A DNA stretch of 64,000 nucleotides from Anaplasmataceae bacterium (GCA_965207045.1 OZ242261.1:1268109-1332108), one strand, 5' to 3'. Counted from the first letter of the stretch, positions 26,321 through 28,323 are shown. Translations and numbers: made by a program. The notes: generated by a model from the letters alone, not told the origin.

Positions 26321-26699
26321 ACTGCCGGTAAAATTTATGTAGTTGTGTTATAAAAAGCATAATTGGTTTGTTGTGTGTAATAGGAGGTGTGCTTTGGAGT
26401 GCTGACTGGAAATGCTTGACCTATTTAAACAAATTTAACCTTTTCCGAGTAAGTAAAAAAATTCTAACTTAAGTTGCTAATGCATGAAAATTGATAATAA
26501 TAGTATAGAAAACGTTTGTCTTGCTAAATTGTCTCCTAAAATGCAAGATATGTTGCGAAAGATTGAAGCTAGTTTTACTGCTGAGATGTTTGGAATGGCA
26601 CTGAAACTGATAATTTTTGTAGATGCTGTTTGGTGTGATTCTGGCACAGCATATAAATTCAAAATCATTGCCAGAAGACATTGATAATAACAATGCTTA

Positions 26700-26830
26700 T
26701 TCTTTAGATGATGTATTTATGCCTAAAGATGATGCGGTTAATGCCTCAGATGGTGAAATTGATTGTACATGTGAACTGGAAAAGCTCATGCGATTTTGCC
26801 TGCTGACCAAGCCGTAGCCTGGAGAATCAT
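26700..26830. other. approximate junction between bacterial-type and eukaryotic-type DNA
   Basis: To the left are dense long ORFs with Rickettsiales-type proteins and about 70 percent A+T by eye. To the right there is no bacterial-type ORF; TAGCTA-rich noncoding DNA, TEs, microsatellites and spliced genes take over. The first host-type aaccttg/caaggtt motif hairpin sits at about 26,830-26,860. Confidence 0.6.
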
Positions 26831-28323
26831 CCCAAGGTTGCTGTGAAAGTCAACCTTGCTCTGAAGAAACCTTATCTGTGTTGACGGCAGCAAGCGTTAG
26901 CTAGTATTTTGTACTCACATTTTGACATTATCGGACCATAGATTTATGTTTACCTCAATAAAAAAGATGCAGCTCATTTGAAACCAAAAGTATCAGTATG
27001 GAATCCAAGGAACCTACTTCTCAGCTGGGACTGATATTAAATTGTAGATACAATTAGTGTGCACCTGCTATCATAGTGATCATTGTGTAATACCGTGTGT
27101 CACCATTCCAGGTATTCACGATCAACTCTCATGGCACATAAAACTATTTCTGATATTTCAATGCACACTAAATATGTAATTATAAAATTAATCATATGCA
27201 ATGTAGTTAGAATTACAAACTTTAACATTGTACAACATAAAGGGAAATTTAATCCTACAAGTAGGCTGTATGTGTACATTTCAAAGTTCTCATGCAGTGA
27301 AGTTGAACTTGCATGCATATACAAAGTCTGCAAAAATAGTTTCACAACTTTATACCTCAATGCCAACTTTGTCAAATGGCTTGACAGCACCTGTAAACCC
27401 CCCCAAGTATATAAATATATTTAATAATGTTACAAATAACAGTACAAGATTTTGTAAACTGGCCATTTTTATAATGTGAACTTGCACACAAGAGCCCACA
27501 GTAAAATTGTTACTAGTGCTCAAATGAAATGGGTACTACTACATAGAAGAGTCTCAACAAAAGGTAAAGTATAGATGGTAAGAGTATATAGCTATGTAAC
27601 TGGATTTGTCAAAACCTGGCATGATGATGGAAGAACTGAAATCCAATTTATAACTTAACATGAAAGCCACACTCTAGCACTACTCAGATACACCAATGAT
27701 AGGGCTAGGTCTGCTTTCGCAGGCAGCATTTTTCTGACCCTGTAAATTGATGATGGTCCATTGTGGGGTGTGTGGTGCCACTGGGGCACACTAATAAAGC
27801 TGCATGTGGTGTCAAACTGCTCCCAACAACCGTCTTATCCTGACATGTACACTGTGGTTGTTTCTGTGTTTTATTGAAGACACAGCGGCTCTTTCCCTGT
27901 GCCGATACATGGTACAACCCACCTTCAGCTTCCCACCCACCCCCAACACCCACCTCATCACCCCCTAACCACCCTTAGCACTAGGCCTTAATGTGCTAGA
28001 CAACTGAAGATAGATTAGTTCATTACTGACTTAGAGATAGCTGTTCCCTCCAAATCAAGGGCTTGCAATTGTGGGTTGGCTGCATGGGTGACCTTTAGAT
28101 AACCGGGCCTCTCGCAAGCAGTCAGTAGTTGAATGTAGCAGGAAGAAACTGACAACAATGGAGCCAAGACATCACAACACTGTAATCATCTTTCTTGTCA
28201 GCAAGTAGCCTCTAGCAGAAAAGCAATTGCAAGTTACCTACGCAGTGTTAAGTACGTTTGTCACTATTAATTAAGCTATTTCTGATGCATAACTTTAATT
28301 GTATTTAACGGTTACTATCCATT

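Follow-up and report, generated by a model that had tools for sequence, protein, structure and literature searches.

The 64,000-nt stretch of DNA analysed here (hereafter the window) consists of two dissimilar parts that meet between positions 26589 and 26590. The left part (1-26589), which extends past the window's left end, is a compact, intact segment of a bacterial genome of Rickettsiales type. It contains a tRNA-Cys and approximately 21 ORFs with Pfam or NCBIfam matches to housekeeping families, all of them full length, and its ORFs are densely packed on both strands between 1 and 26320. The products include an MFS transporter, TadA, PgeF-Smr, SecF, YihA, NuoF, ArgD, ValRS, RecR, a DsbA-like thioredoxin, ThiD, an NlpC/P60 protein and GatB; the intactness of the bacterial housekeeping genes, which had been read from the sequence alone, is borne out from TadA through GatB. 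No disabling mutation, transposon, microsatellite, host repeat or rearrangement was found within 1-26589. Of this part, 87% lies within stop-to-stop ORFs of 100 aa or more, as against 21% of 26590-61000. The GC content is 32.3% in the bacterial part versus 36.1% in the host part, and the cumulative GC skew climbs to about 27 kb and is flat thereafter.

The last conserved housekeeping gene before the junction is gatB (23406-24863, minus strand), whose product matches GatB_N (E=7e-120) and GatB_Yqey (E=1e-51). In a collection of 5.8 billion proteins its closest named relative, at the maximum identity observed (72%), belongs to Rickettsiaceae bacterium H1, a symbiont of the sea urchin Heliocidaris (PMC10989825). 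This sea-urchin Rickettsiaceae MAG and contig_216 of ENA ERZ25066850 (1.08 Mb) hold the nearest relatives, followed by matches of about 60% identity from Rickettsiaceae, Wolbachia, Mesenet and Rickettsia. A scan of the GTDB species representatives with GatB returned only relatives of at most 60% identity, and no reference genome for the symbiont. The gene set, like these GatB affinities (72%, then about 60%), is of Rickettsiales type; the donor is accordingly a deep-branching Rickettsiales-type intracellular bacterium, and it looks like an undescribed lineage of genus level or higher. Neither the GTDB scan nor the JGI metagenome scans, in which 24-mers from each side of the junction gave zero matches, yielded another copy of the bacterial side. 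The two closest relatives, at 72% and 71% identity, do not keep the gene order around gatB; therefore, they do not predict what sequence should follow 26589.

Several long ORFs of the bacterial side are orphans. One of 978 aa (6838-9774, minus strand) has no family match and contains four different internal tandem repeats (81, 36, 39 and 27 bp), and another of 391 aa (17899-19074, plus strand) is likewise without a family match. The last long bacterial-side ORF (24992-26320, plus strand; 442 aa) has no Pfam match; in the ORF map it ends at 26320, exactly where the sequence-only reading had placed the end of the last convincing bacterial ORF. A 90-bp tandem repeat within it (25508-25694) encodes basic motifs of the KKRK type, similar to nuclear-localisation signals, and the C-terminal half of the product is rich in Q, N and S; possibly, it is a secreted effector. 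Searched against 1.84 billion representatives, the protein found only itself and one weak match (E=3e-10). The gene for this sole remote homologue lies on ctg95908_101x_l of ENA ERZ26696912, a 154-kb contig (positions 8001-10001 of the locus compared, L086); the genes of this contig have no Pfam matches, and the locus is uninformative for the 442-aa ORF. Translated with table 11, the homologue's gene gives a product that differs from the recorded protein, and the contig may use a different genetic code.

The right part (26590-64000), which extends past the window's right end, is animal nuclear DNA, as indicated by its gene and repeat content. The transposable elements, microsatellites and spliced genes that had been noted to the right of the junction are all present: an RVT_1 reverse transcriptase, long TATA, AT and TATG arrays, and three spliced paralogues in tandem, together with an ORF composed of Galaxin_repeat domains. 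The paralogous ORFs of the spliced family are all on the minus strand (35118-37052, 44202-46914 and 53635-57839), with their copies about 10 kb apart, and conservation among them stops at a G/GTA splice donor. The family matches nothing in Pfam or the PDB; because relatives of it turn up on ENA contigs of metagenome type and nowhere else, a single contig often having several, it looks like a lineage-specific, expanding family. The reverse transcriptase of a non-LTR (LINE) retrotransposon (47877-49232, minus strand) is represented by two ORFs (RVT_1, E=2e-32 and E=0.0027), and this copy of the element is probably dead, since its coding sequence is broken at 48653/48657. A second fragment resembling the tail of a reverse transcriptase is located at 30740-31237 on the plus strand. 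About 1 kb to the right of the junction there is a dispersed host repeat (27593-27963), of which an unrelated host locus (L083) has three copies, 71-85% identical. The galaxin-like di-cysteine repeat ORF (61387-63999, plus strand; PF24748 Galaxin_repeat, E=2e-181, at least eight stretches) adjoins a TATG microsatellite (61089-61308), exceeds 870 aa and is still open at the window's end.

The host part has an independent counterpart in the public record. Contig ctg95634_43x_l of ENA ERZ25069580 (49,694 bp) is collinear, in reverse orientation, with the window from 54608 down to 26590, mostly at 95-99.5% identity with some stretches at 77-92%; the regions compared were contig positions 1-18853 (L085) and 19596-40129 (L084). 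Apart from indels, the two versions are 0.5-5% different, a divergence to be expected between haplotypes or between individuals. Along the alignment, identity falls to 77-88% between window 27871-30549 and L084 4863-7579, is 99-99.5% at 30.5-41 kb and is 97% beside the junction; this mosaic could reflect divergent haplotypes, gene conversion between units of the array, or paralogy. The final collinear block, from 27276 to 26590, is 97% identical, with its terminal 109 nt identical throughout, and homology ends exactly at 26590, equivalent to about position 28,997-28,998 of the contig (L084 9402 onward). Past this point the ~11 kb that are left of L084 are host sequence, with no bacterial DNA. 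By its coordinates the contig extends about 20.7 kb beyond the breakpoint, the ~11 kb read as host being followed by a last ~9.6 kb. Beyond the breakpoint, L084 has about 525 bp of unique sequence and then two more units of the spliced gene family (9926-11135 and 18113-19319, 87% alike). No bacterial gene occurs in the regions compared. The name of the contig labels it with a depth of 43x, and related host contigs are labelled 43x and 49x.

Since homology to the host contig stops there, in agreement with a change point at 26596 in a 5-mer Markov model (whose training sets were the two halves of the window), we place the junction between 26589 and 26590, where bacterial DNA gives way to animal DNA from one base to the next (feature 26586-26593). 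The abrupt boundary described from the sequence alone is real, as witnessed by this homology break and by the fall in ORF coverage from 87% to 21%. With a slash marking the break, the window reads GAGATGT/TTGGAATGG and the host contig, at the same point, GTTAATG/TTGGAATGG; more extensively, and in the window's orientation, the window reads GCTGAGATGT/TTGGAATGGCAC and the host contig CCAGTTAATG/TTGGAATGGCAC. Strictly, the microhomology at the join is 0 nt; if a 1-nt indel is allowed, it is 3-4 nt (ATG/T).

The short interval on either side of the break can accordingly be assigned. The stretch following the 442-aa ORF (26321-26483) is a bacterial intergenic spacer with no match to the host contigs; composition assigns the spacer to neither side, the 200-nt bins overlapping it scoring -6.3, -4.3 and +11.1 in the 5-mer model. 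Next come the 35 initial codons (MKIDNN...FTAEM; 26484-26588, plus strand) of a bacterial ORF that the junction truncates, as is evident when its sequence is read against the breakpoint. Consequently, the apparent 66-aa ORF at 26484-26684 is a fusion in which 35 bacterial codons run into host DNA. Of the two short broken ORFs that had been noted within the bacterial-looking stretch, this one is bacterial in part; the other (26623-26817) is entirely host, a chance ORF inside which the other haplotype has a 10-bp deletion. Because host homology reaches 26590, all of 26590-26830, including that ORF, and the hairpin just beyond it are host DNA. The sequence-only reading had regarded 26321 to about 26800 as bacterial-looking and let host character begin near 26830; alignment to ctg95634_43x_l shows that this was about 240 bp too far to the right.

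The hairpin itself, CAAGGTTG-N10-CAACCTTG (26833-26858, plus strand), is unchanged in L084 and occurs once in the window. It had been said to recur at 51.8-52.9 kb. The hairpin form does not; what clusters there, at 51.75-52.92 kb, is a related motif, ACAACCTTG. A perfect 42-bp palindrome (51928-51969; 21-nt arms, no spacer) lies in host DNA inside this region of the recurring (A/G)CAACCTTG motif. As a marker of host DNA the heptamer CAAGGTT fails, since the bacterial half has it just as often (11 occurrences, and 13 in the rest of the window).

The immediate surroundings of the join are plain. As the sequence-only reading had stated, there is no transposon, rRNA or long repeat at the junction, and our search likewise found no IS element, other RNA gene or low-complexity sequence at the join. 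The bacterial and host halves share no repeat and show no similarity by blastn or tblastx, and the 64-kb window contains no run of N and no linker sequence. A repeat-mediated misjoin is excluded, because the join has no local repeat, rRNA or IS element and the two halves are without similarity. A break at a tandem-repeat boundary of the host array was also considered and is unsupported: the repeat unit in L084 begins about 525 bp past the breakpoint, and the copies of that unit beyond it are only 87% alike.

That the window itself might have produced the junction as an artefact can be dismissed, as ORFs from both sides and the fusion ORF itself are recorded on one public contig of 1,377,224 bp. 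These are GatB (P0001, 100% identical), the 442-aa ORF (P0149) and the fusion ORF (P0151), together with a 64-aa host ORF (P0152) and the host gene ORFs P0121 and P0125. The contig is in both NCBI and ENA, and the other host contigs are in ENA only. The fusion ORF is recorded on this contig alone, and in no independent (Logan) assembly. ORFs on the contig were called in prokaryotic style, as exemplified by a 199-aa ATG ORF within a host exon; the contig would appear to be mostly bacterial, and to have been binned and deposited as a bacterial genome.

Two explanations of this arrangement deserve extended consideration, and they are the two that had been named at the outset, a recent large lateral transfer (LGT) or a chimeric scaffold. 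The reading that we favour, with a probability of roughly 0.55, is a chimeric contig: the junction joins two molecules that are separate in nature. A long-read metagenome assembler, or a chimeric read followed by the assembler, would have strung the chromosome of the symbiont, an intracellular bacterium of Rickettsiales type, and a nuclear stretch of one host haplotype into one linear contig, which would then have been binned and deposited as a bacterial genome. We infer that the join is artificial, and the feature is most likely not biological.

Several observations are in keeping with a chimeric contig. Taxonomy and composition change abruptly at one point, and on the host side ctg95634_43x_l carries on as host DNA past the breakpoint, so that the host locus is also known in a form free of bacterial DNA. 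Over its 26.6 kb, the bacterial part shows neither decay nor any sign of nuclear residence (disabling mutations, host transposons or rearrangements), a result that a very young insertion would give as well. In view of these two observations, an unmarked bacterial part and an independent host contig free of bacterial DNA, the stronger statement of a host chromosome with 26.8 kb or more of symbiont genome in it is not borne out. The size of the deposited contig, 1,377,224 bp, is that of a Rickettsiales chromosome plus a tail, the chromosome-size contig of a relative being 1.08 Mb. The related host contigs have names of the form ctgN_NNx_l, presumably the naming style of metaMDBG, and would come from a type of assembler that is prone to chimeras. 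Long-read metagenome assemblers (metaMDBG, metaFlye, hifiasm-meta) make cross-taxon and cross-domain chimeric contigs; of the metaMDBG contigs longer than 10 kb, up to 5.6% show clipping events, and chimeras are diagnosed by a single point at which gene taxonomy and composition change suddenly (bioRxiv 10.1101/2025.04.22.649783); the signature at 26589/26590 fits this diagnostic. These benchmark error rates, however, derive from free-living communities and not from samples of a host plus its symbiont. The join also offers no repeat, rRNA, IS element or low-complexity sequence that might provoke a misjoin; a repeat shared between the two sides is typical of repeat-mediated misjoins, although optional for a chimera in general. 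Moreover, a misjoin requires that both true continuations were lost, and a common assembly origin of the 1,377,224-bp contig and ctg95634 is presumed. Finally, a heterozygous and very young insertion would give an identical picture, with an intact insert on one haplotype and an empty site on the other.

That insertion is the principal rival, and we regard it as quite possible, though short of probable. It supposes a very recent LGT in which the symbiont chromosome, whole or in large part, was inserted into one haplotype of a host tandem gene array, at the position equivalent to ~28,997 of ctg95634, too recently for decay. The assembler could have followed the insert directly. Alternatively, given an insert and a free symbiont of identical sequence, it could have passed from the host flank onto the free symbiont's chromosome, and such threading could yield a contig of this shape. 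A clean join of unique to unique sequence, with 0-4 nt of microhomology, is what end joining gives, and the deposited contig does contain the junction. Because the insert-free contig differs from the window as a second haplotype or individual would (0.5-5% plus indels), it fits the empty site expected of a polymorphic young insertion. By our own estimate, an insertion less than roughly 10^4-10^5 generations old should still have intact genes. Rickettsiales, in the form of Wolbachia, are the classic donors of such insertions. Genome projects handle mixed host/cobiont contigs as possible nuclear insertions and take care not to mistake such insertions for cobiont genomes (PMC11016177). Against an insertion stand the 26.6 kb of sequence free of disabling mutations, transposon insertions and rearrangement, as well as the single flank visible within the 64-kb window, which begins inside the bacterial block. 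The size of the contig and its deposition in prokaryotic style likewise suggest a symbiont chromosome with a host tail and not a host chromosome with an insert.

Every observation made fits both a chimeric contig and an LGT, and as both events are uncommon we took their prior probabilities to be about equal. Three considerations moved weight to the chimeric contig. The intactness of the bacterial part and the existence of an insert-free host contig are certain under a chimera and only fairly likely under an LGT. Nuclear insertions would seldom leave a contig made up mainly of bacterial sequence. In addition, LGT from this marine lineage of the Rickettsiales has, as far as we know, no precedent in earlier reports.

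A join introduced later than assembly, at the stage of scaffolding, curation or submission, has nothing specific in its favour; we consider it improbable, as the window contains neither an N gap nor a linker and the join is base-exact and inside unique sequence. Least credible is a transfer from eukaryote to bacterium that would place at least 37 kb of animal-type DNA truly within the bacterial chromosome, for which the deposition of the contig as one molecule is the sole support. Against it, the 37 kb has an ORF coverage of 21%, contains dispersed host repeats, long microsatellites, the reverse transcriptase of a LINE and genes spliced at GT donors, and is collinear with a 43x host contig free of bacterial genes; reduced Rickettsiales genomes are not known to carry such eukaryotic blocks.

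The consequences differ between the two leading explanations. If the contig is a misjoin, then no less than 37 kb of a genome deposited as bacterial is of animal origin and brings with it a spliced gene family, a galaxin-like gene and a reverse transcriptase, from which false "eukaryote-like genes in a symbiont" and false calls of horizontal transfer would arise. In that case the contig should be cut at 26589/26590, the 66-aa fusion ORF should leave the protein databases, and the case is to be grouped with host-contaminated MAGs and with the cross-taxon chimeras already documented. If the transfer is genuine, it would work as the Wolbachia nuclear insertions do and add a new member to that kind; large, intact insertions from endosymbiont to host would then be on record outside Wolbachia and outside arthropods and nematodes, with a marine animal as host and a new lineage of the Rickettsiales as donor. 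An endosymbiont-to-animal transfer would have been caught almost as it happened, and, with the pre-insertion allele in hand, it would provide a rare chance to study the mechanism of integration. The biological scenario would then be that a deep-branching non-Wolbachia member of the Rickettsiales has very recently given anything between tens of kilobases and its whole chromosome to one haplotype of a marine animal, within a tandem array of a lineage-specific gene family, and that the empty-site allele is still segregating, a scenario that we hold to be tenable while giving it less than even odds. On either explanation the halves need to be analysed separately, as had rightly been advised, with 1-26589 treated as symbiont and 26590-64000 as host, and with the boundary at 26590, not 26830.

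Among known systems, the closest biological parallel is the set of Wolbachia nuclear insertions ("nuwts") reportedly described by Dunning Hotopp et al. in 2007, a study cited in PMC11016177, with examples said to include Drosophila ananassae, Callosobruchus chinensis and Armadillidium vulgare. As in these, the donor at our locus would be of Rickettsiales type, and a large collinear block of symbiont sequence abuts animal DNA at a sharp, repeat-free junction. Unlike them, the arrangement reported here shows one flank in the window and no decay, and is known from assembled sequence. The donor is also not Wolbachia, its GatB being about 60% identical to that of Wolbachia and 72% identical to that of the sea-urchin Rickettsiaceae MAG, and the host is an animal with a galaxin-like gene.

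As in the long-read chimeras (bioRxiv 10.1101/2025.04.22.649783), taxonomy and composition shift at one point and each side is normal for its organism; those chimeras, in contrast, are defined by read clipping and a step in coverage, and they joined microbes, whereas here a symbiont is joined to its animal host in a case judged from taxonomy and composition. Host contamination of symbiont MAGs is a further parallel, in that 37 kb or more of a bacterial-side deposit is host sequence, except that contamination of this kind mixes the contigs of a bin and the mixture described here lies inside one contig. It is the mix-up between insertions and cobionts that MarkerScan avoids by keeping only those contigs that are fully covered by cobiont-classified reads (PMC11016177).
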